Notes: a model not told the origin generated them from the sequence alone. A stretch of 64,000 nucleotides of DNA from Microcoleus sp. (GCA_042408215.1 JAYFMW010000006.1:928001-992000), one strand, 5' to 3'; shown: positions 3,882-30,108, numbered from the stretch's first letter. A program made the numbers and translations.

Positions 3882-5186
3882 TCAAACTATTTTATTAATG
3901 GCCGGCTCTTGCACTGAATCGCAATTTTTTAATAGGGACAATCCGAAGAAAATTCGCAAACCCCAAATTTCAAACCAAGGCAAACCCCATCCCAATTTCA
4001 TCTTGAGGATAAAATACTTTTCAAATGCTGCTTTTGCCCAGTTTACCCAGCGTCCTTGCAAAGCATAAGAGTAACGCCGTTTACCTGTTTTTGGATCTGG
4101 TAAAACGGGGGCGGCAACATAGACAATGCCCGTATCGCCAAATTCAGCAAAACAAATCGCTTCCAAAGTTGGTGTTTTCCAACTATTTGCGATCGCACCT
4201 AATCTCACCCCAATATTGTTAGTCACGGCTAATCCCATTGCTTCCGTCATTTGTCCAGTTTTGGGTAATCCCAGCCCAGAGATTGCTTTGTTGTCGGGCA
4301 ATTCCACGCTGACACCAAGGGCATAAACTGAGGAAAATTGAGGATGTTCGTAGGTAGGTAATACGGGAATAAACCCTTTTTCATTTCCCAATCCAGGTAC
4401 TTTTTGGATAAAATCTACTCCTCGAAAAGCTGGCAGAATCATGGCATATTCAAAGGGAAGTTTTCGCCCATCAGCAAGCGCGATCGCTTCGGCATCAACT
4501 GAGGTAATTTGAGCGTTAGTTATTGCCTGAATTCCTCTTTTTTTCATCAGGTTTTCCGTGAATTCTTGAGAGTTACTTAATCCATCTAAACCTAAATGTC
4601 CCAGATAAGGTTCTGGTGTCACAAAAGTAATTGATACTTGCTCTCGCAAACCTCTGCGCCGCAACTCCCACTCTGCCATAAATAAAAACTCATAAGCTGG
4701 CCCAAAACAACTCACTCCTGCCATTGCTCCTACCACTAAATGACGGGGATTGTCTAAGAATTTTAGCCATGCTGTTCGCGCTTCTAAAGCATGATGGGGA
4801 GAGCAAACTGAGTGCGTATAACCCCCCTCTGGCCCAAGTCCGGGGACAGCATCAAATGCAAAAGAAGCACCTGTGGCGATCGCCACATAATCATAATCAA
4901 TAATCCGATTTTCTGCAACAGTGATGCGTTTAGTTTCAGGGTCAAAATCTGTGATTTTTCCTAGTATCCATTCAATCCCGTGTCGCTGAGTTAATTCAGG
5001 TACCTTTAATTGAATGTCTTCTAGGGGGTTAAGATTCAGCGCTACCCGGACCAACCCAGGAATAAAAGTAAATTCGGGGCGATCGGAAATTAACGTCACC
5101 TGATGTTCCTTCGGCAGCAGATGTCGCAGTTCGTAAGCAGTGGGAAGTCCCCCCAATCCCGCGCCAATTACAACCACTTTTGCCAT
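3882..5186 (-). CDS. sqr: Sulfide:quinone oxidoreductase, type I (SqrA-like)
   Basis: GAGLGGLPTAYELRH FAD motif; HSVC, SCFGPAYE, PKTGQMTE and ICFAEFGD motifs. Confidence 0.9.
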   Translation of the reverse strand: MAKVVVIGAGLGGLPTAYELRHLLPKEHQVTLISDRPEFTFIPGLVRVALNLNPLEDIQLKVPELTQRHGIEWILGKITDFDPETKRITVAENRIIDYDYVAIATGASFAFDAVPGLGPEGGYTHSVCSPHHALEARTAWLKFLDNPRHLVVGAMAGVSCFGPAYEFLFMAEWELRRRGLREQVSITFVTPEPYLGHLGLDGLSNSQEFTENLMKKRGIQAITNAQITSVDAEAIALADGRKLPFEYAMILPAFRGVDFIQKVPGLGNEKGFIPVLPTYEHPQFSSVYALGVSVELPDNKAISGLGLPKTGQMTEAMGLAVTNNIGVRLGAIANSWKTPTLEAICFAEFGDTGIVYVAAPVLPDPKTGKRRYSYALQGRWVNWAKAAFEKYFILKMKLGWGLPWFEIWGLRIFFGLSLLKNCDSVQEPAINKIV

Positions 5187-5390
5187 TTTTTTGATTTCCT
5201 TTTTCTGTGCGATGGCAAGCGTCGCAGCTTGCGGATTTTTGTAAAGGTAGTATTCCTTTTTTTGCTTTACTTCATATAATTATGACCTACAAAACGCACA
5301 TTAAACATAAATATGTTGTTGTGCTTTAGCGCTCTAAGGTATTGAGTATTTTTACTTAGTTCACCCCTAAAAATTAATTTTTTAACTTGC

Positions 5391-5419
5391 TTGACAATAT
5401 GACTATGTGGTTATATACT
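5391..5419 (+). promoter_or_regulatory. Sigma70-type promoter of the hdr operon
   Basis: TTGACA (5391-5396), 17-bp spacer, TATACT (5414-5419), ~55 bp upstream of the hdrC1 ATG. Confidence 0.7.
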
Positions 5420-5473
5420 GAGCAAATAGGCAACGGGCCTAACCTCAAGTAGCTCAAATAGGGGATATACATA

Positions 5474-6181
5474 ATGGGCAAGCTATTTAACGAGCTTAAA
5501 CAAGACATTTTGTACCAGCACGGCATGAATGCCTGCCTGAATTGCGGCATATGCACAGCAGTTTGTCCAGCGGCAGAGTTTTATGACTACTCTCCCAGAG
5601 AGGTGATGAACATTTGCCAATCTGAAGCTGACGATCTAATAGAAGAGTTACTTAAGTCAGACAAAATTTGGTATTGCGGGCAATGTTTTTCCTGTAAAAC
5701 CAGGTGTCCAAGAGGTAATAATACCGCCAATGTTATTCTGGCATTGCGCCGACTTTCCGTTCGTCACGGTTACTTTGCCGAGTCAGAAAAAGGCAGACAG
5801 CAATTGTTTGCCAAGCGAGTATTTGGGGAAAATATGCTGAAACGAGGTTATACCTTGCTGGCAGAAAATATCACCCCCGCCCACTTCCCAGAACTCGGAG
5901 AAAACTGGGAATACTATTACGAACACATGGCGGAAATGCGCGAATGGTGGGATGTGCCGATGGACTTGAAAAATAGTGCAGGTTCCCACCGAGTTATTCC
6001 TGAAAAAGACATGGAAGAATTGCGGGCAATTTATCAAGCAACCGGGGCGATCGAGTTAATGGATGCCGTAGAAAAAGGCATGGAAAAGAAACTCGGTAGC
6101 AAAGAAGAAGTCGAAAAATTCTGGGAAAACTGGGTAGAAACTGCTGATAGCAGAAACTACGAAATGGACGAAAATAAATAA
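5474..6181 (+). CDS. hdrC: Heterodisulfide reductase-like subunit C1 (2x[4Fe-4S])
   Basis: CLNCGICTAVCP and IWYCGQCFSCKTRCP motifs. Confidence 0.85.
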   Translation: MGKLFNELKQDILYQHGMNACLNCGICTAVCPAAEFYDYSPREVMNICQSEADDLIEELLKSDKIWYCGQCFSCKTRCPRGNNTANVILALRRLSVRHGYFAESEKGRQQLFAKRVFGENMLKRGYTLLAENITPAHFPELGENWEYYYEHMAEMREWWDVPMDLKNSAGSHRVIPEKDMEELRAIYQATGAIELMDAVEKGMEKKLGSKEEVEKFWENWVETADSRNYEMDENK

Positions 6182-6192
6182 GGAGAAAAATT

Positions 6193-7104
6193 ATGCAGAC
6201 CGTCAATAGCCTTAGCAATGTAAATAGCAGTCTTGATGCCACAGAAACGGCAGGACTCATCTATATGCGCGAAGAAGAAAAATTAGCGCATGATGTGTAT
6301 GTCACCCTGTACCAGCAGTGGGGATTGTCTACTTTTAACAACATCGCAAATAGCGAAAATCGTCACGAGAATAAGATTGAAACACTGCTCAATAGCTATC
6401 AGATTTCAGATTCAGTAGGTGATAATCCGGTTGGTGTTTTTGTCAATCCAGATTTACAACAATTGTACAACAATCTGGTAGCGCAAGGGAGTCAATCGCT
6501 GACTGAAGCCCTGAAGGTAGGAGTTTTAATTGAGGAGACTGACATTGCCGATTTGCAAACGCGAATTGCCCAAACAGATAACGCAGACATTCAACAAGTA
6601 TATCAACAGCTTTTAAGTGGATCGAATAATCACCTGAGTGCATTTACTTCAAACTTGACTGGCGAAACGGTTAATACCAACTCGTCTAGTTGTCCAACAA
6701 ATCAGACTCAGGGAACAACAACAGATGACACCCTAACTGGGGGGAGATGTAATCAAATGTTAGTTGGGAATCGTGGCGGCGATTTACTGACAGGAGAATT
6801 AGGAAATAATAACGTTGTTCGGGGTGGTGCTAACTCAAGATATAGCACAGATTTTTTGTTAAATTCGCCGAGTCAAATTAACAACTATCAAGTACAGGAA
6901 TTTGAGCAGAATTATCGAAATTTAGATCGGAATTTTGCGGCTCAAAACCTGCCCATTGGCTCATGCAATGCCGGGAGGAGCAGTAACTTATCTACGAACA
7001 ACTTGGGGACAGGCTTTTCTGCCAATCAAACCCAGATTGGTACTCTTAATATGAGGCCGACCAATGATTGTAATACCCAAGGTTTAATTTGCGTTAATTC
7101 CTGA
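6193..7104 (+). CDS. DUF2202 ferritin-like protein with degenerate RTX-like/low-complexity tail
   Basis: MREEEKLAHDVY, SENRH, IEETDI and GSNNHL helices; DDTLTGG and GDLLTG nonapeptide-like stretches. Confidence 0.7.
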   Translation: MQTVNSLSNVNSSLDATETAGLIYMREEEKLAHDVYVTLYQQWGLSTFNNIANSENRHENKIETLLNSYQISDSVGDNPVGVFVNPDLQQLYNNLVAQGSQSLTEALKVGVLIEETDIADLQTRIAQTDNADIQQVYQQLLSGSNNHLSAFTSNLTGETVNTNSSSCPTNQTQGTTTDDTLTGGRCNQMLVGNRGGDLLTGELGNNNVVRGGANSRYSTDFLLNSPSQINNYQVQEFEQNYRNLDRNFAAQNLPIGSCNAGRSSNLSTNNLGTGFSANQTQIGTLNMRPTNDCNTQGLICVNS

Positions 7105-7164
7105 ATTAACATCAACATCAACAGAAACTCCGAATCAAAAGACAATAAATAAGGACAAAACATA

Positions 7165-8211
7165 ATGAAAGTAACAAGACAAAATCTGGTTTGGGAAAAA
7201 CACCAAAAGCAGGTTCCAACAGTCGATGATGAAGGCGGCAAATTGTGGGGATGCTTCCGCAGTTGCTTTCTCCAAAGTGCCGCACCATACACCGAAGGGA
7301 TTGCCTATAAAATATTAAAAAACGATTTGGGCATGGACTTGCGGGAAGCACCCGGACATACTTCTTGTGGCGCAATTGGCTATCACGGAGATGTGTCAAA
7401 CCTCGAAACTCAAATGGTAGTTGCAGCGCGGAATTTTTCCGTAGCCCATCACGAATTAGGTGTTGATAATCTCTTCTCATTCTGTGTCACTTCTTTTGCG
7501 AATTACACAGAAATGATCAAACTCTGGGAAGAAGAACCAGAGTTGCGAGAATACACCGAAAAAACCTTAAAAGAAACCACCGGACGAGAATTTTGGGTTC
7601 CCCATGTTTCCGGGGGAAGACCATCTGTTGTTCATGCTTCCGATGTTTTCTATGCCAATCGGTATAAACTAGCCGCCAAAGCGAAATATAGCCTGAAGGG
7701 AATTAAAGCAGTCGATCACATCGGATGTCACTACGGAAAAATCTTTCCGGGTGAAGCAATGGGTGGGGTGGAATTTCCCCAAGTTTTAGTAGGATTACTG
7801 GCAGCTTTTGGTGCAGAAATTGTTGACTATCCAGAAAGAAGACATTGCTGTGGGATGGGTTTTCGCCAGTGTGCTTTTCCCGAAAACAGAGACTACACCG
7901 CAAGTAACGTCTACAAGAAAATGAAAGGTCTCAAAGAAGCGCACCCAGACTGCAATTTGATTCTCACTAACTGTCCCGGATGTACGGTATTTTTGGATGC
8001 TGAACAAGGAACGATTAAAGAAGTTTTGGAAGAAGAATTTAACGTCAGCGTTCTGGATTACGCACAATTGACTGGGTTAATGTTAGGCTATGACCCATTT
8101 AAGGATTGCGGACTGAATGCCAAGGCGGTTGAAATCGAGCCTTTGCTGGATAAAATCGGCATTCCTTACGATAAATCTAAGACTGCTGAACAACGCCGAA
8201 GACCATTTTAA
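7165..8211 (+). CDS. hdrB: Heterodisulfide reductase-like subunit B1 (CCG domains, first cluster motif variant)
   Basis: FRSC, HTSCGAIG, CVTSF, HIGCH, HCCGMG and NCPGC motifs. Confidence 0.85.
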   Translation: MKVTRQNLVWEKHQKQVPTVDDEGGKLWGCFRSCFLQSAAPYTEGIAYKILKNDLGMDLREAPGHTSCGAIGYHGDVSNLETQMVVAARNFSVAHHELGVDNLFSFCVTSFANYTEMIKLWEEEPELREYTEKTLKETTGREFWVPHVSGGRPSVVHASDVFYANRYKLAAKAKYSLKGIKAVDHIGCHYGKIFPGEAMGGVEFPQVLVGLLAAFGAEIVDYPERRHCCGMGFRQCAFPENRDYTASNVYKKMKGLKEAHPDCNLILTNCPGCTVFLDAEQGTIKEVLEEEFNVSVLDYAQLTGLMLGYDPFKDCGLNAKAVEIEPLLDKIGIPYDKSKTAEQRRRPF

Positions 8212-8217
8212 GAGGTG

Positions 8218-8310
8218 AGAAACCGGGTTTCTTCCTGGGCACAAAGTTTTCTGGTAAAACCTAACCATAAACCCGGTTTCTTTTCAACCAATCAAATAAA
8301 CCCGGTTTCT
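8218..8310. repeat. Cyanobacterial dispersed palindromic repeat (GAAACCGGGTTTC/AAACCCGGTTTC)
   Basis: Same core recurs at 26254-26320 and 28178-28242. Confidence 0.75.
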
Positions 8311-8335
8311 TTAATTAACTATAAAGGTAAAAAAC

Positions 8336-9406
8336 ATGAACAAACAAGTGGTCGTAATTGGTGGTGGTCCTGCTGGTCTAGCAGCGGCTGGAAAACTGCA
8401 AGACTTTGGCTATGATGTAGTTTTAATCGAGAAACAAGCCGAAGTTGGGGGACATTTAAACAAGTGGTATAAAGTGTTTCCTGATTTTACCGATGCTTCA
8501 GAAATTACCGCCAATCTCAAAGCTGGTTTAGGGAATACCAGAATTGTAAATAATGCTACGGTGACAGAGATTAAAGGTTCTGCTCCTAATTTTCAAGTGA
8601 CGGTATCAACGGGAGAAGAAATTGAGGCAGCGGCGATTTTAGTTTCGACAGGATATAAGCATTTTGATGCAACTTTAAAAGAAGAATACGGCTACGGAAT
8701 TTATGATAACTGCATCAATTCGGTAGAACTAGATGCCATGCTGAAGGCACAAAGCGTTAAAACCAGAAAGGGGAAAGTGCCGAAGAAAGTAGCGCTGATT
8801 CATTGCGTGGGTTCTCGTGATGAGAAGGTGGATAATAATTACTGTTCGCGAGTTTGCTGCACGAATGCCATTAAGGTAGGAATTGAGATTAAAGAACAGA
8901 ATCCCGATTGTGAAATTTACTGCCTTTATATGGATATTCGGGTGTTTGGTCGCGGTTATGAGGAACTGTACAGAACTTCTCAACAAGAGTTTGGAGTGCA
9001 GTTTCTTCGGGGTCGGCTTTCTGAAGCGGGTGAGAAAAATGATGGCAGTTTATTGTTGCGGCTAGAAGATACGTTAACGGCAAAACCGATGCGGTTGACG
9101 GTCGATCTTTTGGTTTTGATGGTGGGGATGGAGGGTAATACCGAGTTATCTGACGTGGCCGGTTTAACCTTGGGTTGCGATCGCTTCTATGCCACTGCCC
9201 ATCTGCAATATTCTAACAATCATTCTGCTCGATCGGGTATTTTTCTCGCCGGGGCAGCAACGGGGCCAAAAGCGATTATGGAATCCATTACCGATGGCCG
9301 ATCGGCGGCGGCAGAAATTGCCAGTTTTGTAGCGAGTAATCAAGCAAATTTGGCATCCAACCTGAATGGAAAAGCAGTAACAAAAATGGCAGCATCTCTG
9401 AAGTGA
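8336..9406 (+). CDS. hdrA: Heterodisulfide reductase-like subunit A, short form (FAD + one [4Fe-4S])
   Basis: GGGPAG, EYGYG, HCVGSRD...YCSRVCC, YMDIR..G, GIFLAGAATGPK; no ferredoxin insert. Confidence 0.9.
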   Translation: MNKQVVVIGGGPAGLAAAGKLQDFGYDVVLIEKQAEVGGHLNKWYKVFPDFTDASEITANLKAGLGNTRIVNNATVTEIKGSAPNFQVTVSTGEEIEAAAILVSTGYKHFDATLKEEYGYGIYDNCINSVELDAMLKAQSVKTRKGKVPKKVALIHCVGSRDEKVDNNYCSRVCCTNAIKVGIEIKEQNPDCEIYCLYMDIRVFGRGYEELYRTSQQEFGVQFLRGRLSEAGEKNDGSLLLRLEDTLTAKPMRLTVDLLVLMVGMEGNTELSDVAGLTLGCDRFYATAHLQYSNNHSARSGIFLAGAATGPKAIMESITDGRSAAAEIASFVASNQANLASNLNGKAVTKMAASLK

Positions 9407-9417
9407 GGTAAACAACA

Positions 9418-10008
9418 ATGGCAACTAAGAATAAGAAAAAATTTGTCTTTGGTCTGAAAGTTGATCGTCAACTCGATGGCGATCAAATGAACTCCGATTT
9501 TATTAAGAAAGTTCTGGCTGAAGGTGGCCAAGGTGCGGCGATCGCGGCTTGTATGCAATGTGGCACTTGTAGCGGTGGCTGTACCAATATTGACCTGATG
9601 GATATGTCCCCCCGAACCCTAATTTTAATGGTGCAAAGAGGGGAATGGGAAAAGGTACTTCAAAGCAATGCTTTGTGGATGTGTAGTTCCTGCTACATCT
9701 GTACCTCTCGATGTCCGCGTGGGGTGCGTCCTTCTGATGTGATTGAAGCGGTAAAAGCACTCGCAATTCGCCAAGGAATCGAGAACGATTCTACCCGATT
9801 CAATCAGATATTTGTCGAGTTAGTTCAGAAACGAGGCATTTTGTTTGAACCGGAATTAATGCACAAATATGGCGGTTTACCAGCCATGATCGAACAAGCA
9901 GAATTGGGAATTAAATTAGCTTTAAAAGGCAAAATGTCACCATTCCCAGAAAACGTAAAAGATCCCAAAAAATTTAGTGAAGCATTAGAAAAGGCAAAAA
10001 AACCATGA
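9418..10008 (+). CDS. hdrC: Heterodisulfide reductase-like subunit C2
   Basis: CMQCGTCSGGC and LWMCSSCYICTSRCPRG motifs. Confidence 0.88.
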   Translation: MATKNKKKFVFGLKVDRQLDGDQMNSDFIKKVLAEGGQGAAIAACMQCGTCSGGCTNIDLMDMSPRTLILMVQRGEWEKVLQSNALWMCSSCYICTSRCPRGVRPSDVIEAVKALAIRQGIENDSTRFNQIFVELVQKRGILFEPELMHKYGGLPAMIEQAELGIKLALKGKMSPFPENVKDPKKFSEALEKAKKP

Positions 10009-10883
10009 AATCAACCACGAAATATTCTTACTATCCCGGATGTAGTCTGCATACCACAGCTAAAGAGTTTGATATCTCAACTAGAGTGGTAATGCAGGAA
10101 TTAGGAATTGAACTAGAAGACCTCAAAGACTGGTCTTGTTGTGGCGGTTCCATCGCGGCGAGTGTTTCTCACGATGTTGGTATGGCAATGGCGGCGAGAA
10201 ATGTCGCTTTAGCCCAAAAACAAAATCTCGATTTATTAGCATCTTGTTCGGGGTGTTACAACAAGTCAGCAAGGGCGCTGAAGGCATTAAAAGAACCCAC
10301 CGAAAAAGATAGAATTATGGCTATTATGTCGGATATGGGGATCGATGTTTCTGACTATAACATCCGGGTCAGAAATGTGGTGGATGTGTTAGTAAATGAT
10401 GTGGATATTGCCTCGCGAGTAAAAAAGCCATTAACAGGTTTAAAAGTTGCCTGTTATTATGGATGTCTGTTAACTAGACCGGCAGATATCACGGGTTGGG
10501 ATTCGCCGATGTTCCCGACATCAATGGATAGATTATCTGAAATTTGTGGGGCGGAAGTAGTAGATTTTCGATCGAAAACTAAGTGCTGCGGTGGCCCGAT
10601 TCTGGTATCCAAAGAAGAGGTCGCGTTTGACCTTACGAAGAAACTCTTGGATGAGGCCCAATCTCTGGGTGCAGATTGTATTGTTTTGGCTTGTCCGTTG
10701 TGCGACACTAACCTAGAACTGCGCCAGTCGGATATCGAGAAAAAATACAACGTTTCTTACAATTTGCCAATTCTCTATATCACCGAAATCATCGGATTGG
10801 CTTTAGGAATGAAACCGAGTAAATTGGGGATGAACAAGCACATTGTTTCAGCACAACCCGTCCTCAAAAAATTGGGTTTATAA
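10005..10883 (+). CDS. hdrB: Heterodisulfide reductase-like subunit B2 (canonical CCG motifs)
   Basis: YYPGCS, WSCCGG, CSGC, YYGC, KCCGG, CPLC; ATGA overlap with hdrC2. Confidence 0.9.
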   Translation: MKSTTKYSYYPGCSLHTTAKEFDISTRVVMQELGIELEDLKDWSCCGGSIAASVSHDVGMAMAARNVALAQKQNLDLLASCSGCYNKSARALKALKEPTEKDRIMAIMSDMGIDVSDYNIRVRNVVDVLVNDVDIASRVKKPLTGLKVACYYGCLLTRPADITGWDSPMFPTSMDRLSEICGAEVVDFRSKTKCCGGPILVSKEEVAFDLTKKLLDEAQSLGADCIVLACPLCDTNLELRQSDIEKKYNVSYNLPILYITEIIGLALGMKPSKLGMNKHIVSAQPVLKKLGL

Positions 10884-10892
10884 ACCATAAAA

Positions 10893-11188
10893 ATGAAACG
10901 TAAACAGCCAATAAATTTAACGATTTATCTTCGAGCAATTGTGACTTTAGGACTTTTAAGTGCTTGGAGTTTAGTCACATTCACCGGATTTCTGCTGTGG
11001 TTGATTCCCCGGGTCAAAAGGTAGGTCATGGCTTTCTATTTTGGGGATTAACCAGACATGGATGGGGTGATATTCATTTCATCATTAGCTTAGTTGCCTT
11101 CGGTTTGACCGTGATTCATATTATCCTGTATTGGCGAGCTTTAAGCAAATTAGTTCGATATTTAATCACGGTTCATACTTCTCTCTAA
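10893..11188 (+). pseudogene. DUF4405-like membrane protein, frameshifted near 11010
   Basis: ATG 10893 frame gives a TM helix (LVTFTGFLLWLIP) then TAG at 11022; a second frame continues FWGLTRHGWGDIHF...IHIILYW. Confidence 0.65.
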
Positions 11189-11204
11189 CTTCGAGCTTGA
11201 CATT

Positions 11205-11759
11205 ATGAACAACTACAAACTCCAGAGAAACAATCATAGTACAGTTGTGAAGTGGGTTATAGCAGGAATTATAATCATCAGTAATGGCATCGTTTTTTCC
11301 TGCTTTTCCCCTTTAAAAGCACTGTCTCAAACTTCCTTAGACACTAAGACGCAACAGGCAATGATTGACGCGATTAATGATGAGTATCGCTCCAGAGCAT
11401 TGTATGATGCTGTCCTGCAAAAATTTGGGTCTCTCCGCCCTTTTAGCAACATTGTCCAAGCGGAAAATAACCATGTTAATCTTTGGATTTCCTTGTTTGC
11501 TAAGTATGGAATGGCTGTACCGACGGATTCTTTTGCCGGCAAAATGTCGGTTCCTAATACCTTACAAGCGGCCTGTCAAGCTGGGGTTGAAAATGAAATT
11601 GCTAACGTGCAAATGTACGATCGCTTTTTAGGTTTTGTCACCCAGCCAGATTTGCAGGCAGCTTTTACCCAACTGCGCCAAGTCTCTCAGGAAAAGCATT
11701 TAGCCGCCTTCCAGCGCTGTCATAATCGACCTGGTGTCGGTCAAGGTCGCAATTTTTAG
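11205..11759 (+). CDS. Ferritin-like (DUF2202-related) protein with N-terminal signal/TM segment
   Basis: DEYRSRALY, PFSNIVQAENNH, ACQAGVENEIANVQMY and HLAAFQRC. Confidence 0.7.
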   Translation: MNNYKLQRNNHSTVVKWVIAGIIIISNGIVFSCFSPLKALSQTSLDTKTQQAMIDAINDEYRSRALYDAVLQKFGSLRPFSNIVQAENNHVNLWISLFAKYGMAVPTDSFAGKMSVPNTLQAACQAGVENEIANVQMYDRFLGFVTQPDLQAAFTQLRQVSQEKHLAAFQRCHNRPGVGQGRNF

Positions 11760-11850
11760 TGATGACATGATTGTTCAAAACCGACTCAAATTTTAGCTTT
11801 TGATCGAATCGATCGGAAAAAATCTCTGTTCATTTAAACCAGTAATTATC

Positions 11851-12057: not shown

Positions 12058-12111
12058 CTTGTGTAATTTTCCGTTAAATTCCGACAACTATCAACACTCT
12101 AAAAAACAATA

Positions 12112-12645: not shown

Positions 12646-12694
12646 ATCCAGGAATTGAACAACAAATAAAATCATCAACAACCGGAAAAAATAG

Positions 12695-13138: not shown

Positions 13139-13149
13139 GAGGATTTGCC

Positions 13150-13656: not shown

Positions 13657-13735
13657 TTCCCGTTATTACTGCTAGTTGGGTAGGGTGCGTGGCAGCCACG
13701 CACCCTACTATTGATGTTCATCTACTAATACAATT

Positions 13736-14191: not shown

Positions 14192-14203
14192 GGGAGAAAA
14201 ATT

Positions 14204-17537: not shown

Positions 17538-17541
17538 TGCT

Positions 17542-21693: not shown

Positions 21694-23038
21694 TTGACAC
21701 TCCCCAGCCTAAAGGCGTGGGGATTCTTTGTTCATAGAGCTAACGTGCTGCGGACAGGATTTCTCCAACCAGAGTAGAGGTCAATTCTCCCAAAGCGTTG
21801 CTTGCGTTAAGCGCAAAGGTTCCGGTATGCCCTACCGTACCCAATCCTCGACTCAGGATATTTCTAGCTGCGTTAAAATCTCTATCCATTACACAGCCAC
21901 ACTTGCAAACGTGCGTCCTAGTGGATAGCGTTTTCTTCACAATTGCACCGCAGCTAGAGCATTCTTGGCTAGTGTATTGCGGATTTACCGCAACCGTAAC
22001 TCTTTCAAATACTTGACCGAAATATTCAATCCAGACACGGAACTGATACCAAGAAGCATCGTTAATAGACTTAGCTAGACAATGATTTTTCACCATATTT
22101 TTAATTCTCAAATCTTCGTAAGCTATCAAGTCGTTTGACTGAACTACGCACCGCGCTAATTTCACAGCATGGTCTTTGCGTTGCCTACTTATTTTGAGAT
22201 GGCGTTTTCCTAAAATCTGTCTAGCTTTGCCTCTATTTTTTGAACCTTTTACTTTCCTAGATACACGACGATGAGAACGTCTGAGAACTTTTTCACCTTT
22301 TCGTAAGAATTTAGGATTTTCAACCATCACTCCGTTGGAATCGGTGTAATATTCCTTCAATCCTACGTCTAATCCGATGGTATTTCCAGAAGGCTCTGTG
22401 TTTTCCTTTCGATCAACATCGACACAGAATTGGACATACACGCCGTCTGCACGTTTTACCAATCTTACCCGTTTTATTTGGGCGATTTGATAGAAATGCA
22501 AGTCGCGTGTGCCTTTCAACTTGAGTTTGCCAATTCCTTTTTTGTCGGTAAACTTTATTGATTTTCTGTCATCCGCAAGTTTCCAACCAGTTGATTTATA
22601 CTCAACAGAGCGACAGTCTTTCTGGAATTGTGGATATCCTTTTTTACCAGGAATTGACTTTTTGCAGTTCTCGTAAAATCGGGAGATAGCAGACCAGGCT
22701 CGTTCAGCACTGGATTGTCTAGCTTGAGAGTTAAGTTCGTCGGCAAACGGGAAATCACGAGCCAATACAGCACAATATTTATTCAAATCGTACTTATCTA
22801 TTTTTTTGTTGTCCATCCAATAGCGCAAACAGCTATTGCGGACAAATTGTGCTGTACGAATCGCTTCATTTACTGCTGCAATCTGACTTGATTTTCCGTA
22901 AGCTTTGAACTCAAAAACTAGCATCGCCTTACCTCCTGCCTTATACTAGATCTTTTAGCACAAGATTTGCTGGTATCGTAACAAAGGTTTACAATTAAAG
23001 CCGTCCTAAAAGGACGGGGTTTTAAACCCAATTTCCTG
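21694..23038 (-). mobile_element. IS200/IS605 family element, tnpB only (IS1341-like)
   Basis: On - strand: left-end hairpin (CCCCGTCCTTTTAGGACGG) after TTAT; right end GAATCCCCACGCCTTTAGGCTGGGGAGTGTCAA; no tnpA. Confidence 0.85.
21740..22924 (-). CDS. tnpB: RNA-guided endonuclease TnpB
   Basis: GLDVG, YEDL, CSSC/CKC zinc finger, DRDFNAARN. Confidence 0.93.
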   Translation of the reverse strand: MLVFEFKAYGKSSQIAAVNEAIRTAQFVRNSCLRYWMDNKKIDKYDLNKYCAVLARDFPFADELNSQARQSSAERAWSAISRFYENCKKSIPGKKGYPQFQKDCRSVEYKSTGWKLADDRKSIKFTDKKGIGKLKLKGTRDLHFYQIAQIKRVRLVKRADGVYVQFCVDVDRKENTEPSGNTIGLDVGLKEYYTDSNGVMVENPKFLRKGEKVLRRSHRRVSRKVKGSKNRGKARQILGKRHLKISRQRKDHAVKLARCVVQSNDLIAYEDLRIKNMVKNHCLAKSINDASWYQFRVWIEYFGQVFERVTVAVNPQYTSQECSSCGAIVKKTLSTRTHVCKCGCVMDRDFNAARNILSRGLGTVGHTGTFALNASNALGELTSTLVGEILSAAR

Positions 23039-23171
23039 ATAATTAATTAACCCGACTCGATCTTAGTTCTTGGTGATTGGTAGTTGGTTGTTAGTAGGAA
23101 GACATAATTAAACGGAGAGTTGTATAATTGAAGCAGGATTGATATTTTCAAATTCCCATTGGCTCAAAACT

Positions 23172-23981
23172 ATGTCATTGACTACAACATCTAAATTTTC
23201 CTCAGTTTACGGCCCAGTCAAGTCTTGGCGCTACGGGCGATCGCTGGGTATTGACCCCATCGGGCCAGTTTCTACCTGTTCCTTTAACTGCGTTTATTGT
23301 CAACTGGGAGAGATAGAAGTTAAAACACGCGATCGTGCCATTTTTATCCCTACCAACCAAATCTTACAAGACTTGCAATCCTTCGCGCCTTGGGATGTAG
23401 ACATCATCACCCTCAGCGGTAGTGGCGAACCCACTCAAGCATTGAATTTAGGCGAAATTATCACCTCTGTCAAAGAATGTACCAAAAGAGCGATCGCAGT
23501 ATTAACTAATGCTACATTACTCAATGACCCACAAGTGCGTTTAGAATTAGCTTTCGCCGACAAAGTATCAGTAAAATTAGATGCAGTTAGTAGCGATCTC
23601 CTCCAGCGCGTCAACCGTCCCGTCGCCGGCATAGACTTACAAAGCATTCAGACAGGTTTGCAGCAATTTAGACAAGAATATAGCGGGGAATTTGGCATTC
23701 AAACAATGATTTTATCACCTTGGGATGCCGCCACTAAAACAGAATATATCCGCTGGATTAAAATATTATCACCAGCCGAAATTCAACTCAATACCCCCAC
23801 CAGGCCCAAACCTTTAACTCGCCAGTTAGACGGGCGGGGAAATCACACCCCTGAAGATCGCCCTTATCCCATAAAAATGCTCAAATGCTTGAGTTATAGT
23901 GAATTAGGAGCGATCGCCACCCAGATTCAGCAGGAAACTAACATTCCCGTGCGTTTTGCGCCCACAGATGGCCAGACCTAG
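23172..23981 (+). CDS. Radical SAM protein (COG0731-like)
   Basis: YGPVKSWRYGRSLGID, CSFNCVYC, SGSGEPT. Confidence 0.85.
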   Translation: MSLTTTSKFSSVYGPVKSWRYGRSLGIDPIGPVSTCSFNCVYCQLGEIEVKTRDRAIFIPTNQILQDLQSFAPWDVDIITLSGSGEPTQALNLGEIITSVKECTKRAIAVLTNATLLNDPQVRLELAFADKVSVKLDAVSSDLLQRVNRPVAGIDLQSIQTGLQQFRQEYSGEFGIQTMILSPWDAATKTEYIRWIKILSPAEIQLNTPTRPKPLTRQLDGRGNHTPEDRPYPIKMLKCLSYSELGAIATQIQQETNIPVRFAPTDGQT

Positions 23982-24087
23982 TACCTTTTAAAGATATAAT
24001 CATTAAGAAGAATTAGGCAGAAGAGAACCCCCAACTCTGTTAAAAAGAGGGCTATTGAGATTAGGGTCTAGGAAGGAACAAACACAG

Positions 24088-24665
24088 ATGAGCGTACAAT
24101 TAATTAAAGGTGGCAGATTCAATCTTTCTCAAGAAGTGCCGAACTTAAAAAGACTAGCGATCGCCTTGGGTTGGCAAGTCAATTCAATAGGCAAAAACTG
24201 TGAAATTGATGCTTCAGCATTTATGTTAGGCACTGATGGCAGAATCCCCCACGAAGACTACTTAGTATTTTATAATAATACTAAATCCCTTGACGGTTCT
24301 GTGAAACAATCCGGCACTGATAAATCTTCGCCCAGAAAAGGATACATTAACACGCTCTACAGCGTTGATTTATCTCTGATGGATGCCACCATTGAACAGA
24401 TTGTGCTGATTGTAACTATCCACGATGCTGAATCAGTAGGATTAAATTTTAGCCAAATTCAGAACGCTTTTATCAGCTCTATACGATCGCGATCGCAAAA
24501 CCGAACTGACTCGGTACGAATTAAAAGAGAATTTTACATTAGAGACAGCTTTGGAATTTGGACGTTTGTATAAAAAGAGCGGAGACTGGAGGTTTCAGGC
24601 CGTAGGACAAGGATATAAATCAGGATTGCGACAGTTTTGTTGAAAAATATTATGTAGAAAAGTAA
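24088..24665 (+). pseudogene. terD: TerD family stress protein, frameshifted
   Basis: LGW, IDASAF, LVFYNN; C-terminus (TALEFGRLYKKSGDWRFQAVGQG) is in another frame after ~24477; second shift near 24631. Confidence 0.75.
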
Positions 24666-24845
24666 ACAGGAGAATTGGTAATTGCGATCGGGATGTACAG
24701 CATTAAAGCCTGAACAGGAGTAACGCCGCCTTCTATGCGGTGCCATAACCGCCCGAAGGCGGCGTTACAAACTGTTTTGCCTAAGTCCTAAATAGCCGTC
24801 GCACTCGATTTAAGAAATCCTCAACATCTAAAAAAACTGGTCAAT

Positions 24846-26159
24846 TTATTTTTTCCACTGGATCAACTTGATGTAATCTCCTTCAAACTGCTCTCCTTTC
24901 AGCATCCGATTCCAATAAATCCAAGGCAAAGCAGTAGTTTTCATCTTCCACATAATCCAGCTTTCTTGCACAGGGTTGAGGGGAAAACTAGAAAGCACAG
25001 TACCACTATAACCATCAAATTCGGCCATGATTGTCTTGCCATAACCAGTGATTAAAGGACAGCAAGTATAGCCGTCATACTTATGTAATAATGGTTTGGA
25101 GTCTATTAAAGCTAGTAAATTTTCTGCTACGATCGGTGCTTGTTTGCGAGCTGCTGCTGCTGTCTTAGAAGTTGGCAGCGAAGAAGCATCCCCCAAGCTA
25201 AATACGTTGGGATATCGATTGTGCTGGAGCGTGTATTTATCTACATCTACCCAGCCATAGGAACTACCGGGAACGGCCAAAGGGCTTTGTTTAATAAAGT
25301 CAGGAGCGCTTTGCGGCGGTGTGACGTGAATCATTTCGTACTTGTGGGTGACCTCATCGACAACAGCACCGTTATCATCGAAAACATCAAAAACTGCTTC
25401 TTTGGTTTCAGGTTTAATTTCCTTCAAATTGTGCCGGAACTTAACATCAATTTCCCGTTGTTGGACGACTTTATCTAATAGTGATGAATACTCCGGTACG
25501 GAAAACATTTTGGTTGCTGGTGTGAGAAACATCACGTTAGTGCGCTGACGGACTCCCAATTTACTGCGGAAGGTATCATCTGCCATGTACATGACTTTTT
25601 GCGGCGCACCACCACATTTTACCGGAGTGTTGGGAAAGGTAAATAGAGCATTTCCACCTTGGAAATTTTTGATTAGTTCCCAGGTATAAGGTGCGTAATT
25701 AGGAGCATAATTGCTAGTAACACCATCTTTTCCGAGCGCTTCTCTCAGTCCTTTAATTAAATGCCAGTCCAACTGAATGCCGGGACTGACAATTAAGTAA
25801 TCATACTCAACCAGGATGCCTTCTTTGGTGAGGACGGCATTGTTTTCTGGGTCTAATTTAACCACTCGGTCTGCGATCCAAGTCGCTTGTCGAGGAATGA
25901 AATCTTTTTTATCCCTCACTGTATCCTCAATTTGGAATACTCCTCCGCCTGTCAGCGTCCAACCGGGTTGGTAATACTGCTTCTTCGATGGCTCGATGAT
26001 GGCAATATCTAGGGATTTGTTTTTTTTCAATAACATAGAGGCGGTGGGAAGTCCGGCAGACCCGCCCCCGATGAAAACGATTTGGTGGTGCAGTGTCTTG
26101 GTAATGGCGGGGGTTGCGGACGCTGGAGTCTGGGACTGTTGGGAATTTGAGGTGATCAT
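24846..26159 (-). CDS. sqr: Sulfide:quinone oxidoreductase, type II (SqrB/eukaryote-like)
   Basis: YYQPGWTL, KCGGAPQK, PTSKTAAA, YDGYTCCPLITG, LPWIYWN. Confidence 0.88.
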   Translation of the reverse strand: MITSNSQQSQTPASATPAITKTLHHQIVFIGGGSAGLPTASMLLKKNKSLDIAIIEPSKKQYYQPGWTLTGGGVFQIEDTVRDKKDFIPRQATWIADRVVKLDPENNAVLTKEGILVEYDYLIVSPGIQLDWHLIKGLREALGKDGVTSNYAPNYAPYTWELIKNFQGGNALFTFPNTPVKCGGAPQKVMYMADDTFRSKLGVRQRTNVMFLTPATKMFSVPEYSSLLDKVVQQREIDVKFRHNLKEIKPETKEAVFDVFDDNGAVVDEVTHKYEMIHVTPPQSAPDFIKQSPLAVPGSSYGWVDVDKYTLQHNRYPNVFSLGDASSLPTSKTAAAARKQAPIVAENLLALIDSKPLLHKYDGYTCCPLITGYGKTIMAEFDGYSGTVLSSFPLNPVQESWIMWKMKTTALPWIYWNRMLKGEQFEGDYIKLIQWKK

Positions 26160-26229
26160 AAGTAGTTTTTTTCTTTGAGAATAGGTTGACCGATCGCTTC
26201 CTTAGTCAATAAGGTTCTAGCAGGTTGAG

Positions 26230-26332
26230 CAGGACTTACGCACGCGGGGCCAAAAACCCGGTTTCTGCGTCAATATCTCTCGAAAAAAGCGATGATTTTT
26301 CAAAGAAACCGGGTTTTTTTGCGTAAGTCCTG
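26230..26332. mobile_element. MITE with CAGGACTTACGCA terminal inverted repeats
   Basis: Perfect 13-bp TIRs flanked by a TTGAG direct repeat (26225-26229, 26333-26337). Confidence 0.8.
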
Positions 26333-26568
26333 TTGAGTAAATCTACTTACCCCCGCTGCTAACTTTTTTGTTGCTATTGTCAAATTGTACAACTTAGCTT
26401 ACTATATGGCAATATAGGCAATTAATAAATATGCACTACTCCCGTGGCATATTTGAAAGCTAAGGAGGCTCTGCCTTCTTTCCGAGTTCCCTGGCTCAGC
26501 CAGGGAACTAGATCGCGATCGCCAGACATTCCATTAAGCAGGTAAAAACTTTACAAGGAGCCAGAAAT

Positions 26569-27273
26569 ATGCTATTTCGCCAAATGTATGACAACGAAAC
26601 CAGCACTTATACTTATTTAATTGCTGACGAAAACACCAAAGAAGCTGCTTTAGTCGATCCGGTGATCGAGCAAGTCGATCGTGACTTAAAGCTAATTCAA
26701 GAATTAGGACTAACTTTGCGCTATTGTTTGGAAACGCACATTCACGCCGATCACATTACGGGAACGGGTAAGTTGCGAGAAATCACAAATTGTGATGGCA
26801 TAGTGCCAGAAAATGCCCAAGTTGCTTGTGCTAACCGCTTGATTAAAGATGGGGAAATATTACAGCTAGGCGAGATTGAAATTAAAACGATCGCCACTTT
26901 AGGACATACCGACAGTCATAACTGTTACCTAGTCAATCAAAACCTATTGCTGACTGGAGATTCTTTGTTGATTCGCGGTTGCGGACGGACTGATTTCCAA
27001 AGCGGTAATCCGGGTTTGATGTACGACAACGTTACGCAAAAATTATTTACCTTACCCGATGAAACTTTAGTTTATCCCGGTCACGATTATAAAGGACATC
27101 TGGTTTCTACAATTGGCGAGGAAAAGCAATATAATCCCCGGTTTGTTGGCCAAGATCGGGCGAGTTTTATCGAACAAATGAATAACCTGAATCTGCCCAA
27201 TCCGAAGAAAATTGCGGAAGCAGTACCGGCGAATCAACAATGTGGGAAAATACCTGTGATCGCAGAAGTTTGA
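26569..27273 (+). CDS. pdo: Persulfide dioxygenase (ETHE1-like MBL fold)
   Basis: TYTYL, ETHIHADHITG, GCGRTDFQ, YPGHDY, STIGEEK..NPR. Confidence 0.9.
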   Translation: MLFRQMYDNETSTYTYLIADENTKEAALVDPVIEQVDRDLKLIQELGLTLRYCLETHIHADHITGTGKLREITNCDGIVPENAQVACANRLIKDGEILQLGEIEIKTIATLGHTDSHNCYLVNQNLLLTGDSLLIRGCGRTDFQSGNPGLMYDNVTQKLFTLPDETLVYPGHDYKGHLVSTIGEEKQYNPRFVGQDRASFIEQMNNLNLPNPKKIAEAVPANQQCGKIPVIAEV

Positions 27274-27284
27274 GGATTTAGATC

Positions 27285-27713
27285 GTGGCAAATGTGAACT
27301 GGGTAACAGCTTTAATTGGTGGCATCTTAATTGGGTTAAGTGCCACCGTCTTACTGGCATTTAATGGTCGAATTGCTGGTATTAGTGGAATTGTCAATGG
27401 TGCGATCGCCTTTTCCAAACGAGAAGTCTGGCGGTGGATCTTCATCCTGGGTATGTTGCTGGGTGGCATATTATACGAATATGGACTAGCATCTCAATTA
27501 ACTCCCACCGCGACATTGACTCCTTGGGCAATGATTATCGGCGGTTTTCTGGTTGGTTTTGGCACTAGAATGGGTAGCGGTTGCACTAGCGGTCATGGAG
27601 TTTGTGGGTTAGGCCGATTATCTATGCGATCGCTAGTGGCAGTTATCACCTTTATGATTACCGCCATCCTCACAGTTTTTGTTGTCCGTCACCTATTGCA
27701 GTTGAGTATATGA
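27285..27713 (+). CDS. YeeE/YedE sulfur-compound transporter (PmpA-like)
   Basis: GRIAGISG and GSGCTSGHGVCG; GTG start. Confidence 0.9.
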   Translation: MANVNWVTALIGGILIGLSATVLLAFNGRIAGISGIVNGAIAFSKREVWRWIFILGMLLGGILYEYGLASQLTPTATLTPWAMIIGGFLVGFGTRMGSGCTSGHGVCGLGRLSMRSLVAVITFMITAILTVFVVRHLLQLSI

Positions 27714-28123
27714 AAGAGAAGCTAATAGCGTTATTGTCAGGAGTGTTATTTGGTCTGGGACTGGGGTTTTCGCAGATGATCGATCGCCAGCGGGTACTAG
27801 GCTTTTTGGATGTCGCCGGTGCTTGGGACTCAACATTATTATTTGTGTTGGGTGGCGCGGTCACGGTGACAGTAATTGCCTTCCGATTTGTGCTGCGTCG
27901 CCCTCACCCAATCTTTGCTGACAAATTTAATTTACCAACTAAGAAAGACATCGACAAACCTTTAGTAATTGGGGCAGCTATTTTCGGTATCGGTTGGGGA
28001 ATTTGTGGATACTGTCCAGGGCCGGGGATCACTGCTTTAGTATTGGGTAATTGGAATCCGATTTTGTTTGTGGTGGCGTTCATTGCTGGTTCGCTGACCT
28101 ATAAAAACTTATCTGAAAAGTAA
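27710..28123 (+). CDS. YeeE/YedE sulfur-compound transporter (PmpB-like)
   Basis: VLGFLD..G.WD and FGIGWGICGYCPGP; ATGA overlap at 27710. Confidence 0.88.
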   Translation: MKEKLIALLSGVLFGLGLGFSQMIDRQRVLGFLDVAGAWDSTLLFVLGGAVTVTVIAFRFVLRRPHPIFADKFNLPTKKDIDKPLVIGAAIFGIGWGICGYCPGPGITALVLGNWNPILFVVAFIAGSLTYKNLSEK

Positions 28124-28167
28124 TTTTTATATGAGTAGGGGTAGGGACACGGCAATGCCGTGTCCCT

Positions 28168-28264
28168 TTACGCAAAAAAAACCGGTTTCTTTGAAAAATC
28201 GTGGGTCTAGCCGAGAAATCTTGACGCAGAAACCGGGTTTTTGGCCCCGCTTGCGTAAGTCCTG
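28168..28264. mobile_element. Second, left-truncated copy of the CAGGACTTACGCA MITE, inverted
   Basis: Reverse-complement similarity to 26230-26332; left TIR cut by a GTAGGGACACGGCA palindrome. Confidence 0.7.
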
Positions 28265-28326
28265 AAATACAGATGTGGAGATAGTTTCATGCCCGGTACA
28301 GAAATATTAACTAATTCATAGTTTGA

Positions 28327-30108
28327 TTGACTGAAATGTTTGATAAAAAGACAATGGTTGAGCGATCGCAAAAGCAAAAATGGTTGGATCAATGGAGTAG
28401 TTTTCTTCCGATTTTGGATTGGGGTTTACACTATCGACGGGACTATTTGGTAGGAGATATCACTGCCGGAATTGTTGTTGGCACTGTGCTGATTCCCCAA
28501 GCAATGGCCTATGCTTTGTTAGCAGGTTTACCTCCCCAAATCGGGCTATATGCTAGTATTTTGCCCCTAGTGGTTTATGCCTTTCTTGGCAGCAGTCGTC
28601 TGATTTCGGTTGCCCCGGTAGCATTGGATTCGCTGATGGTTGCGGCGGCAATTGCTCCTCTAGCGACTGAAAATACACCGGAATATTTAGGATTGGCATT
28701 GTTGCTGGCACTAATGATTGGGGTGATTGACATTTTAATGGGTGTCTTTCGGTTAGGGTTTTTGGTGAATTTTCTTAGCCAAGCGGTGATTTCTGGCTTT
28801 ATCAGTGCGGCTGCAATTGTAATTGGTTTTAGTCAGGTTAAACATTTGTTAGGCTTGAAGATTCCACAAACAGAATCTTTTATTCAGTTACTAACTTATC
28901 TAGGAAAAGGAATTAGTGCAATTAATTGGCTTACTCTATCCTTGGGTTTATTCAGCATTCTCCTATTAGTCTATTTCCCAAACTGGTTGGGAAAACAACT
29001 CAATAAACGCGGATTTCAAGAGTTAACAATTATGCCACTTACTAAAAGTGCGCCTCTCCTCATCGTAGTTAGTAGTTCGTTGCTAGTCTGGTGCTTTCAC
29101 CTGGATCGAGTTGCGGGAGTGAAAGTCGTTGGTGATATCCCCAAAGGCTTACCTTCTCTCTCTTTTCCTGCCCTTGATGGCAATACGATTACTACATTAT
29201 TACCGGCGGCTTTGGCGATTAGTTTTGTAGGTTTCATGGAAGCCTATTCAGTTGGTAAGTTTTTGGCTAGTAAGCGACGCCAAAAAGTTGATGCCAACCA
29301 GGAATTTATTGCTTTGGGAGCCGCAAATATTAGTGCAGCTTTGACTGGAGGGTATCCGGTTACAGGAGGCGTAAGTCGATCGGGTGTGAACTTTTCTGCT
29401 AATGCTAATACTCCTTTAGCCTCGATAATTACGGCATTAATTGTGGCGCTTACCGTCATGTTTTTAACGCCGTTGTTTTACTTTTTACCACAAGCTTGTT
29501 TGGCGGCAATTATCGTGATGGCTGTTAGCAGTCTTTTAGATTTTGCAACACTGAAACGTTTATGGATATATAATCGTTCGGATGCGATCGCCTGGATCTC
29601 TGCATTTCTTGCCGTCTTAATCACCAGTGTGGAAAAAGGTATTTTGTTCGGTGCTGCTGTATCAATTCTATTACATTTATGGCGTACTAGCAAGCCGCAT
29701 ATCGCGGTGGTCGGTAGAGTTGGAAACAGCGAACATTTTCGCAATTTTTTGCGACACGAAGTTAAAACTTGTCCTCACGTTTTGGCAGTTCGGGTTGATG
29801 CTAGTCTTTACTTTGTGAATACTAAATATTTGGAGGATTACCTGCTCAAAGCGGTGAGCGATCGCCCAGATGTCAAATATTTATTACTGGTATGTAGTGC
29901 TGTGAATTCCATTGATGGTAGTGCTTTGGAAACGCTCAAAAGTTTGATTCTTGACTTAAATAATCGGGGAATTGAATTCTATATGTCTGAAGTCAAGGGC
30001 CCAGTGATGGATGGATTACTCAAAATTGGGTTTGTCGAGGAGTTAGGAAAAGACCATATTTTCCTAACTACTGACCAAGCAATGCGTTTTTTGGAGTGCG
30101 GGAATTAA
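28327..30108 (+). CDS. sulP: SulP family anion transporter with STAS domain
   Basis: GDITAG...IPQAMAYALLAGLPPQIGLY, GGVSRS, C-terminal STAS. Confidence 0.92.
   Translation: MTEMFDKKTMVERSQKQKWLDQWSSFLPILDWGLHYRRDYLVGDITAGIVVGTVLIPQAMAYALLAGLPPQIGLYASILPLVVYAFLGSSRLISVAPVALDSLMVAAAIAPLATENTPEYLGLALLLALMIGVIDILMGVFRLGFLVNFLSQAVISGFISAAAIVIGFSQVKHLLGLKIPQTESFIQLLTYLGKGISAINWLTLSLGLFSILLLVYFPNWLGKQLNKRGFQELTIMPLTKSAPLLIVVSSSLLVWCFHLDRVAGVKVVGDIPKGLPSLSFPALDGNTITTLLPAALAISFVGFMEAYSVGKFLASKRRQKVDANQEFIALGAANISAALTGGYPVTGGVSRSGVNFSANANTPLASIITALIVALTVMFLTPLFYFLPQACLAAIIVMAVSSLLDFATLKRLWIYNRSDAIAWISAFLAVLITSVEKGILFGAAVSILLHLWRTSKPHIAVVGRVGNSEHFRNFLRHEVKTCPHVLAVRVDASLYFVNTKYLEDYLLKAVSDRPDVKYLLLVCSAVNSIDGSALETLKSLILDLNNRGIEFYMSEVKGPVMDGLLKIGFVEELGKDHIFLTTDQAMRFLECGN

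Follow-up and report, generated by a model that had tools for sequence, protein, structure and literature searches.

We analyzed a 64,000-nucleotide window (the whole stretch of DNA considered here, part of contig C6 of the 7.36-Mb genome of the cyanobacterium Microcoleus sp., GCA_042408215.1) that carries a sulfur island with two genes for sulfide:quinone oxidoreductase (SQR), a gene cluster resembling heterodisulfide reductase (Hdr), and a gene for persulfide dioxygenase (PDO). A first-pass annotation had proposed that these genes form an oxic and an anoxic route for one persulfide pool, with type I SQR paired to Hdr and type II SQR paired to PDO. The first part of that proposal stands, in that both SQRs, the PDO, and the Hdr-like set are present and linked, but the fixed pairing of each SQR is not supported. 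We favor a reading, to which we assign a probability of roughly 0.55, in which the island supplies two sulfide outlets under one predicted persulfide-responsive regulon, with the oxic/anoxic split arising from enzyme chemistry and not from wiring. What is new here is the Hdr variant, its predicted regulon, and a paralog of the Rieske subunit of cytochrome b6f (PetC), not the SQR pair.

The features on which this reading depends, mapped from an open reading frame (ORF) listing with Pfam and NCBIfam scans, are the following:

1013-3673, minus strand: copA-type P-type ATPase, left flank of the island
3674..31794, no strand: inserted island, from copA to the S41 peptidase gene, whose flanks are near-adjacent in congeners
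31795-33174: S41 peptidase gene, right flank, followed by gcpE
3882..5186, minus strand: type I SQR (SQR-A), 434 residues (PDB 3sz0 match, three Cys align)
5391..5419, plus strand: hdr promoter-like site TTGACA-17-TATACT, enclosing operator 5395-5418 (21.0 bits by position weight matrix, PWM)
5474..6181, plus strand: HdrC1-like protein with two [4Fe-4S] ferredoxin motifs (Pfam, NCBIfam, Cys motifs)
7165..8211, plus strand: HdrB1-like protein with one complete CCG motif (Pfam, motif scan)
8336..9406, plus strand: short HdrA-like flavoprotein, 356 residues (6tjr match)
9418..10008, plus strand: HdrC2-like ferredoxin (Pfam, NCBIfam, Cys motifs)
10005..10883, plus strand: HdrB2-like protein with two complete CCG motifs (Pfam, motif scan)
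12112..12645, plus strand: cytochrome b6f Rieske (PetC) paralog (NF045928)
12695..13138, plus strand: DUF442/BLH-type sulfurtransferase-like protein (Pfam, NCBIfam)
17530..19511, plus strand: metallo-beta-lactamase (MBL)-fold protein, rhodanese, DUF3122 (Pfam, motifs)
24846..26159, minus strand: type II SQR (SQR-B), 437 residues (human SQOR match, both Cys align)
26377..26417, no strand: two overlapping face-to-face promoter-like sites (plus 26377-26405; minus 26412-26384) and operator 26394-26417
26569..27273, plus strand: PDO of the ETHE1 type (4ysb and 4chl matches)
27285-27713 and 27602-28123, plus strand: two YeeE/YedE-type half transporters (Sulf_transp, DUF6691; Pfam, Cys motifs)
28327..30108, plus strand: SulP-STAS anion transporter (Pfam, NCBIfam)

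The distance from copA to the S41 peptidase gene is 28.1 kb here and 684-924 bp in 4/4 congeners examined, and in a sample of 19 congeners we found hdrA, type I SQR, and type II SQR in 0/19 each and PDO in 2/19. The GC content of the island is 0.40-0.44, against a genome mean of 0.451. We conclude that the whole 3.7-31.8 kb stretch is an insertion and a true genomic island; every gene named in the first-pass annotation was recovered in its place from the ORF, Pfam, and NCBIfam evidence. We regard the island as one horizontally acquired mosaic that would constitute a single sulfide regulon, the regulon part being a prediction.

The assignments of SQR and Hdr types rest on the best solved relatives and on Cys patterns. 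SQR-A is closest to the SQRs of Acidithiobacillus ferrooxidans (A. ferrooxidans; 3sz0, 2.8e-88) and Aquifex aeolicus (3hyv, 7.8e-82), and its C128, C160, and C345 align with all three catalytic Cys of 3sz0 (A. ferrooxidans C128, C160, and C356). The best solved relative of SQR-B is human SQOR (2.9e-113); its motifs VKCGGAPQK and YTCCPL align with the human motifs, and the equivalents of both human C201 and C379 are kept. The two proteins, which are 24% identical over 315 residues, are the only clear SQRs in the genome. We therefore assign SQR-A to type I and SQR-B to type II, as first annotated, and predict sulfide-dependent quinone reduction for both. Each is divergent from its own operon, again in agreement with the earlier description: SQR-A from hdrC1 (start 5474) across a 287-bp gap and SQR-B from the PDO gene (start 26569) across a 409-bp gap. 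Type I and type II SQR also occur together in 7/44 cyanobacterial genomes (PMC5061849) and in 11 of 400 other genomes of the phylum (our comparison set, in which kin are not independent and all counts are descriptive), and both types are transcribed in a low-O2 mat Phormidium (PMC8651085). The Microcoleus genome differs from these in holding both SQRs in one 28-kb insertion together with an hdr cluster, PDO, and a PetC paralog.

The Hdr-like set is as rich in Fe-S motifs as had been claimed, with two CX2CX2CX3C motifs in each of HdrC1 and HdrC2 and complete CCG motifs in HdrB2 (two) and HdrB1 (one). HdrA (eight Cys) aligns over its full length with sHdrA of Hyphomicrobium denitrificans (6tjr, 3.7e-62) and through its core with methanogen HdrA (1.1e-67). 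The PetC paralog scores 296.8 bits with NCBIfam NF045928 (cut-off 250) and is 52% identical to the other genomic copy. The operon on the SQR-II side (26569-30108) likewise holds what was first reported: PDO, the two YeeE/YedE halves, and SulP-STAS, in that order. The PDO, the only one in the genome, has the HxHxDH motif, and its MBL fold is nearer to solved PDOs (best match Myxococcus xanthus PDO 4ysb, 1.4e-81; human ETHE1 4chl, 2e-63) than to glyoxalase II (1qh3, only 2.2e-21). The divergent SQR-II/PDO pair recurs in four other genomes (G212, G268, G017, and G288), and it resembles the SQR-PDO pathway by which heterotrophic bacteria, mitochondria, and Synechococcus PCC 7002 detoxify sulfide (PMC7042703) in joining an SQR and an ETHE1-type PDO, followed by membrane transporters. 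It differs from that pathway in having a second SQR and an Hdr-like cluster on the same island, with operators of the same family, and from PCC 7002 in that PDO here faces a type II SQR, whereas there a type I SQR works with PDO in sulfide detoxification (PMC7042703).

The case for a single regulon comes from a palindrome, consensus ATATAAC-N6-GTTATAT, that lies upstream of hdrC1 in 13/15 hdr-carrying relatives. We built a PWM from those 13 relatives' sites only and then scanned the whole Microcoleus genome with it. The top-ranking site was the operator at 5395-5418, inside the hdr promoter-like site. The operator at 26394-26417, where the promoter-like sites point to SQR-II and PDO, scored 12.2 bits (rank 10 genome-wide; 14.5 bits for its ortholog in G212), and an ArsR-family gene on contig C12 (30330-30671) has a site of 12.7 bits (rank 7) 28 nt ahead of it. 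Other high-scoring sites (C28:42255, C28:1963, C6:100041, C3:261134, and C28:383468) are in or beside genes with no evident sulfur link (GTPase, aminotransferase, TPR-protease, and AAA proteins) and were treated as chance. In 14 intergenic regions of SQR, PDO, and arsR genes from other genomes (22.7 kb), the matrix found 15 sites of at least 14 bits, in 12/14 regions, while in 200 first-order Markov resamples such sites averaged 0.045 and never exceeded 1; the whole Microcoleus genome has 3 such sites. Within 524 kb around hdr in the relatives there were nine further sites of at least 14 bits, eight of them upstream of an island-type gene (SQR-I, SQR-II, PDO (two), PetC operons (two), a DUF442 operon, and an NMO/HdrB1-like pair); the ninth, at position 219 of G246, could not be placed. 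The hdr, SQR-II/PDO, and arsR promoters thus have an operator family in common, and we therefore predict one sulfane-sulfur-responsive regulon. This prediction from sequence leans against two branches under separate control, both promoters having the same kind of operator.

We found no helix-turn-helix protein among the 33 large and 10 small ORFs of the island, and an island-encoded regulator was rejected; the candidate, the off-island ArsR on contig C12, was traced through an ArsR gene that stands beside hdr in G238. Its best solved relatives are Rhodobacter capsulatus SqrR (6o8l, 1.8e-10) and BigR (3pqj, 1.1e-8), and the first sensing Cys aligns. Orthologs of at least 60% identity are present in 13/15 hdr genomes, the exceptions (G131 and G192) being the same two that lack the operator, and the ArsR gene adjoins PDO in six genomes (G062, G035, G278, G280, G328, and G029). 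The candidate thus shares with the persulfide-sensing repressors SqrR of R. capsulatus and BigR of Xylella the ArsR fold and the first sensing Cys, a palindromic operator predicted to overlap promoters, its own included, and a gene placed beside PDO or SQR in many genomes; it differs in being encoded on another contig, beside a TnpB element. arsR genes have been noted beside cyanobacterial sqr (PMC5061849), and in the literature searched we did not find hdr described within the regulon of such a repressor.

The comparison set also speaks to how the modules are combined. hdrA of this kind occurs in 15/400 genomes from 9 families (plus one distant form), type I SQR in 36, type II SQR in 44, and PDO in 118. 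SQR is present in 15/15 hdr carriers (type I in 11, type II in 10, both in 6) versus 54/385 hdr-less genomes, and PDO in 15/15 versus 103/385. We compared all island proteins against the hdr-neighborhood DNA of these 15 genomes, which extends up to 20 kb to each side of hdrA (14-40 kb total) and is cut by contig ends to 14-36 kb total in six of them. The order hdrC1-B1-A-C2-B2 is the same in 15/15 relatives and hence in 16/16 clusters (with the hdrA/hdrC2 part truncated in G212). Type I SQR adjoins hdr in 5/15 (G212, G116, G280, G131, and G192) and type II SQR in 4/15 (G246, G266, G029, and G328); PDO is near hdr in 3/15 (divergent from hdrC1 in G116 and G278, 4 kb off in G246) and a PetC paralog in 5/15. 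Both SQR types near hdr were seen in 0/15 relatives within the available neighborhoods. PDO, in turn, has a type II SQR no more than 5 kb away in seven genomes and a type I SQR in four. Because hdr and PDO pair with either SQR type, the modules appear to be interchangeable parts and not two fixed branches, and we conclude that, as far as gene neighborhoods can predict it, the downstream route is not set by the type of SQR. The nearest relative for both modules is G212 (87-94% identity), and it has SQR-I/hdr on one contig and SQR-II/PDO on another; the modules are together in 0/15 other hdr genomes, and this rarity of linkage also leans against two branches.

The Hdr set shares several features with the type I sHdr-LbpA system of H. 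denitrificans and Aquifex aeolicus (PMC11094781): the gene order C1-B1-A-C2-B2, a short HdrA of ~350 residues that aligns with sHdrA throughout, ferredoxin-like C subunits and CCG-domain B subunits, and association with DUF442 and rhodanese sulfurtransferases and an ArsR-type repressor. It differs in that methanogen HdrA, not sHdrA, is the better match to the HdrA core by score, in that HdrB1 keeps just one of two CCG motifs, and in that the host is an oxygenic phototroph whose partner enzyme is SQR rather than Sox. No sHdrH gene was found at the cluster, where hdrA and hdrC2 are 11 bp apart, so that the order C1-B1-A-H-C2-B2 does not occur. No LbpA gene accompanies the cluster (the one GcvH-family (GCV_H) gene in the genome is ~415 kb off), no DsrE was found in the whole genome, and the single TusA is on another contig; DUF442 and rhodanese proteins are present in the cluster instead of DsrE3/TusA. 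Among 130 neighboring ORFs of 14 relatives, none belonged to the sHdrH, LbpA, or DsrE families. Since sHdrH, LbpA, and DsrE are lacking, the Hdr set is not a member of the sHdr-LbpA system as defined (PMC11094781), and on its sequence features we class it as an LbpA-less cousin of type I sHdr that is widespread in mat-forming cyanobacteria. The sources named for HdrA homologs include Microcoleus, Phormidium (including Phormidium sp. OSCR), Planktothrix, Coleofasciculus chthonoplastes, Sodalinema, Geminocystis, and Gloeothece. One homolog (P0044, 83% identity) is labeled as coming from an Actinomycetota metagenome-assembled genome, probably by a binning error, since all other organism-named close matches are cyanobacterial. 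Our searches of the literature turned up only passing mentions of cyanobacterial hdr with no function given, in Phormidium pseudopriestleyi (PMC8002359) and Cyanobacterium sp. DS4 (PMC12060301), and the sHdr census names no cyanobacteria in its text or in one supplement, although its other supplements may list them (PMC11094781).

Association with SQR, PDO, sulfurtransferases, and a persulfide-type operator argues for sulfane sulfur as the substrate of the Hdr set, whose function and reaction direction are predictions. PDO chemistry requires O2 and the Fe-S/flavin chemistry of Hdr-type enzymes does not, which makes oxic and anoxic outlets of one sulfane-sulfur pool a reasonable reading. In the scheme that we propose, either SQR would hand sulfide electrons to plastoquinone and yield sulfane sulfur, which would inactivate the off-island SqrR/BigR-like ArsR repressor and so derepress both divergent units together. 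With O2, PDO would convert persulfide to sulfite, and sulfite with sulfane sulfur would give thiosulfate, to exit through the YeeE/YedE halves or SulP. Without O2, the same sulfane-sulfur pool would be handled by the Hdr-like complex, to which the DUF442 and rhodanese sulfurtransferases would deliver sulfur. The island Rieske paralog may serve sulfide-driven electron flow via cytochrome b6f.

An alternative closer to the first-pass annotation is that there are two dedicated, separately regulated branches, SQR-I feeding Hdr for anoxygenic photosynthesis under anoxia and SQR-II feeding PDO for detoxification under oxia. The physical layout in this genome and the like layout of each module separately in G212 fit such an arrangement, as do a PAS-GAF kinase found on the hdr side only, the PetC paralog on the same side, and the common attribution of type I SQR to anoxygenic photosynthesis and of type II to detoxification (PMC5061849, PMC8651085). 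We nonetheless think it improbable: in the relatives hdr stands next to type II SQR almost as often as to type I and in some cases next to PDO, PDO itself is found beside type I SQR, the two promoters have one operator family, and the modules are not linked in any other hdr genome, as detailed above. In addition, PCC 7002 detoxifies sulfide with a type I SQR and PDO (PMC7042703), and sulfide-dependent anoxygenic photosynthesis has been shown in a Sodalinema strain whose only SQR is type II (PMC12694226). At the other extreme, the genes could lack any functional integration, mobile elements having stacked independent accessory genes in a hotspot and hdr having a non-sulfur redox task. TnpB elements do lie between and after the modules, radical SAM, TerD, and NMO genes intervene, and the nearest relatives differ along the island (G246 and G212 for hdr; G266 and G212 for the thioredoxin-reductase-like/MBL block and SQR-II). 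With SQR and PDO in every hdr genome, SQR beside hdr in 9/15, and a shared operator far above chance, we hold this explanation to be very improbable indeed.

What the Hdr-like complex does within a joint regulon is a separate question. Sulfide-driven cyanobacterial photosynthesis is relevant both to the ecology of mats and to models of Proterozoic oxygen. To our knowledge, SQR alone is known at the gene level in this process. Thiosulfate or sulfite has figured among its reported products in the physiological literature since 1987. Thiosulfate is formed by a strain now placed in Sodalinema (PMC12694226), and as late as 2018 a second sulfide-oxidizing enzyme "remains hypothetical" (PMC5776472). 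The island and its relatives put forward the Hdr-like complex as a candidate enzyme, together with a regulator and operator, both predicted, and a dedicated Rieske paralog. We tentatively suggest, as a possibility short of an even chance, that the LbpA-less HdrC1B1AC2B2 is this second enzyme, long hypothesized for anoxygenic photosynthesis in cyanobacteria. Controlled by a persulfide-sensing ArsR, it would oxidize the sulfane sulfur produced by SQR to sulfite or thiosulfate, needing neither O2 nor lipoate and giving four extra electrons per sulfur to a photosynthetic chain with its own Rieske subunit. If true, this would explain the difference between thiosulfate-forming and elemental-sulfur-forming mat cyanobacteria. 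The complex might instead run as a reductase of per- or polysulfides or of sulfide-stress disulfides, drawing electrons from ferredoxin or the thioredoxin-reductase-like flavoprotein and buffering reactive sulfur species. Both CCG motifs of the disulfide-reducing subunit of methanogens are conserved in HdrB2 (match 3.5e-50), sHdrB2 is itself thought to be a disulfide reductase (PMC11094781), the operon has a thioredoxin-reductase-like flavoprotein with a CxxC motif, and the lipoate carrier that marks the oxidizing sHdr system was not found. Making sulfide again would, however, oppose the SQRs with which the complex is predicted to be coregulated, the order C1-B1-A-C2-B2 is that of the oxidizing type I sHdr (PMC11094781), and sulfite or anion exporters accompany the cluster (TauE next to hdr in G116, G278, and G280; SulP here). 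We consider the reductase unlikely.

Several observations weigh against our preferred reading of two outlets under one predicted persulfide-responsive regulon. Six of the 15 hdr clusters have no SQR in the available neighboring DNA. The Hdr cluster is without LbpA, DsrE, and sHdrH, HdrB1 has one of two CCG motifs, and oxidation and reduction are both compatible with a function that we infer from association. The operators at PDO and arsR in this genome score low (12.2 and 12.7 bits), one half-site of each being degenerate, and G131 and G192 keep hdr beside SQR-I with no operator. The alignment of ArsR with SqrR stops before the second SqrR sensing Cys; Cys92 and Cys96 are in the last helix. 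The PAS-GAF histidine kinase could add O2- or redox-specific control to the hdr-side operon alone. Finally, RNA-library contigs, described next, may contain DNA and cannot show level or regulation.

Both modules are represented, at 97-99% identity and similar word depths, among Logan contigs from the RNA libraries of three studies (X1-X3): SQR-I, hdr, PetC/DUF442/NifX-like, MBL-rhodanese-DUF3122-NMO, SQR-II, and PDO-YeeE in X1-X3, and SulP in X1. Because such contigs show presence only, they give weak support to transcription of both modules in the same samples. In a further library (X4), which holds a relative ~91-95% identical, hdr contigs have word depths of 692-3157 and an SQR-II contig 208, a hint only. 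Contig depths were not used to rank genes, nor were uncovered stretches (SulP in X2-X4; SQR-I and PDO in X4) used as evidence.

The remaining features of the island are as follows:

6193..7104, plus strand: DUF2202 (ferritin-like) gene between hdrC1 and hdrB1 (Pfam)
10893..11188, plus strand: frameshifted DUF4405 membrane-protein gene (two frames of 43 and 74 residues), flanked by hdrB2 and orf184
11205..12057, plus strand: orf184 (weak DUF2202 match, N-terminal hydrophobic stretch) and a YgaP-like transmembrane protein
13150..15208, plus strand: NifX/FeMo-co-like protein, DUF2214, and thioredoxin-reductase-like flavoprotein (CxxC) (Pfam, NCBIfam, motifs)
15201..17537, plus strand: PAS-GAF histidine kinase, overlapping both flanking genes (Pfam, NCBIfam)
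19447-24573: the stretch between the modules, with NMO (minus), TnpB (minus), radical SAM (plus), and TerD (plus)
21740..22924, minus strand: TnpB element between both modules (Pfam, NCBIfam)
30147..31340, minus strand: TnpB element at the right edge of the island (Pfam, NCBIfam)

Among the 16 hdr clusters, the DUF2202 insert occurs only here and in G246, where the ortholog of the DUF4405 gene is a single intact ORF of 105 residues. The orf184 and YgaP-like transmembrane genes recur beside hdr in G246 and G192, and the NifX-like/DUF2214/thioredoxin-reductase-like block recurs in G246 and G266. The PAS-GAF kinase gene looks like an insertion into the operon: in G266 the thioredoxin-reductase-like and MBL genes are adjacent with no such kinase between them, and one RNA-library contig (X1) joins 15200 straight to 17529, skipping it. 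The rhodanese has a hydrophobic N-terminal stretch, signal-peptide-like by eye. The NifX/FeMo-co-like protein (13150-13656) ends in a His/Glu/Lys-rich repeat tail of ~55 residues (HEGEHKHE...) that suggests metal binding.

In the relatives, the closest for hdr (G246) has an extra HdrB1-like paralog (L022 10322-11392) and, next to the hdr cluster, a protein of 900 residues with cNMP-binding, sigma-54-activator, and Fer4_5 domains (L022 14064-16766). G116, G278, and G280 (L036/L042/L046) each have a PDO operon transcribed away from hdr, in which PDO is followed by rhodanese-YgaP_TM and then a TauE sulfite exporter, and in G280 a gene for cytochrome bd subunit I and a Tll0287-like gene are beside SQR-I and PetC.

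The NMO, TnpB, radical SAM, and TerD genes at 19.4-24.8 kb, between the modules, have no evident sulfur link. Neither they nor the PetC paralog, sulfurtransferases, and PAS-GAF kinase of the hdr-side operon figured in the first-pass annotation. A third TnpB element (L057 2018-3265) directly adjoins the off-island ArsR gene, and RNA-library depth over the TnpB elements is tens to hundreds of times that of their neighbors, as multicopy elements would give. The PDO-YeeE cassette is flanked by two inverted copies (26230-26326 and 28168-28264; 89% complementary) of a 97-nt palindromic repeat. With at least 14 near-full copies genome-wide, it is likely a repeat of the miniature inverted-repeat transposable element type, and many RNA-contig joints fall at it.

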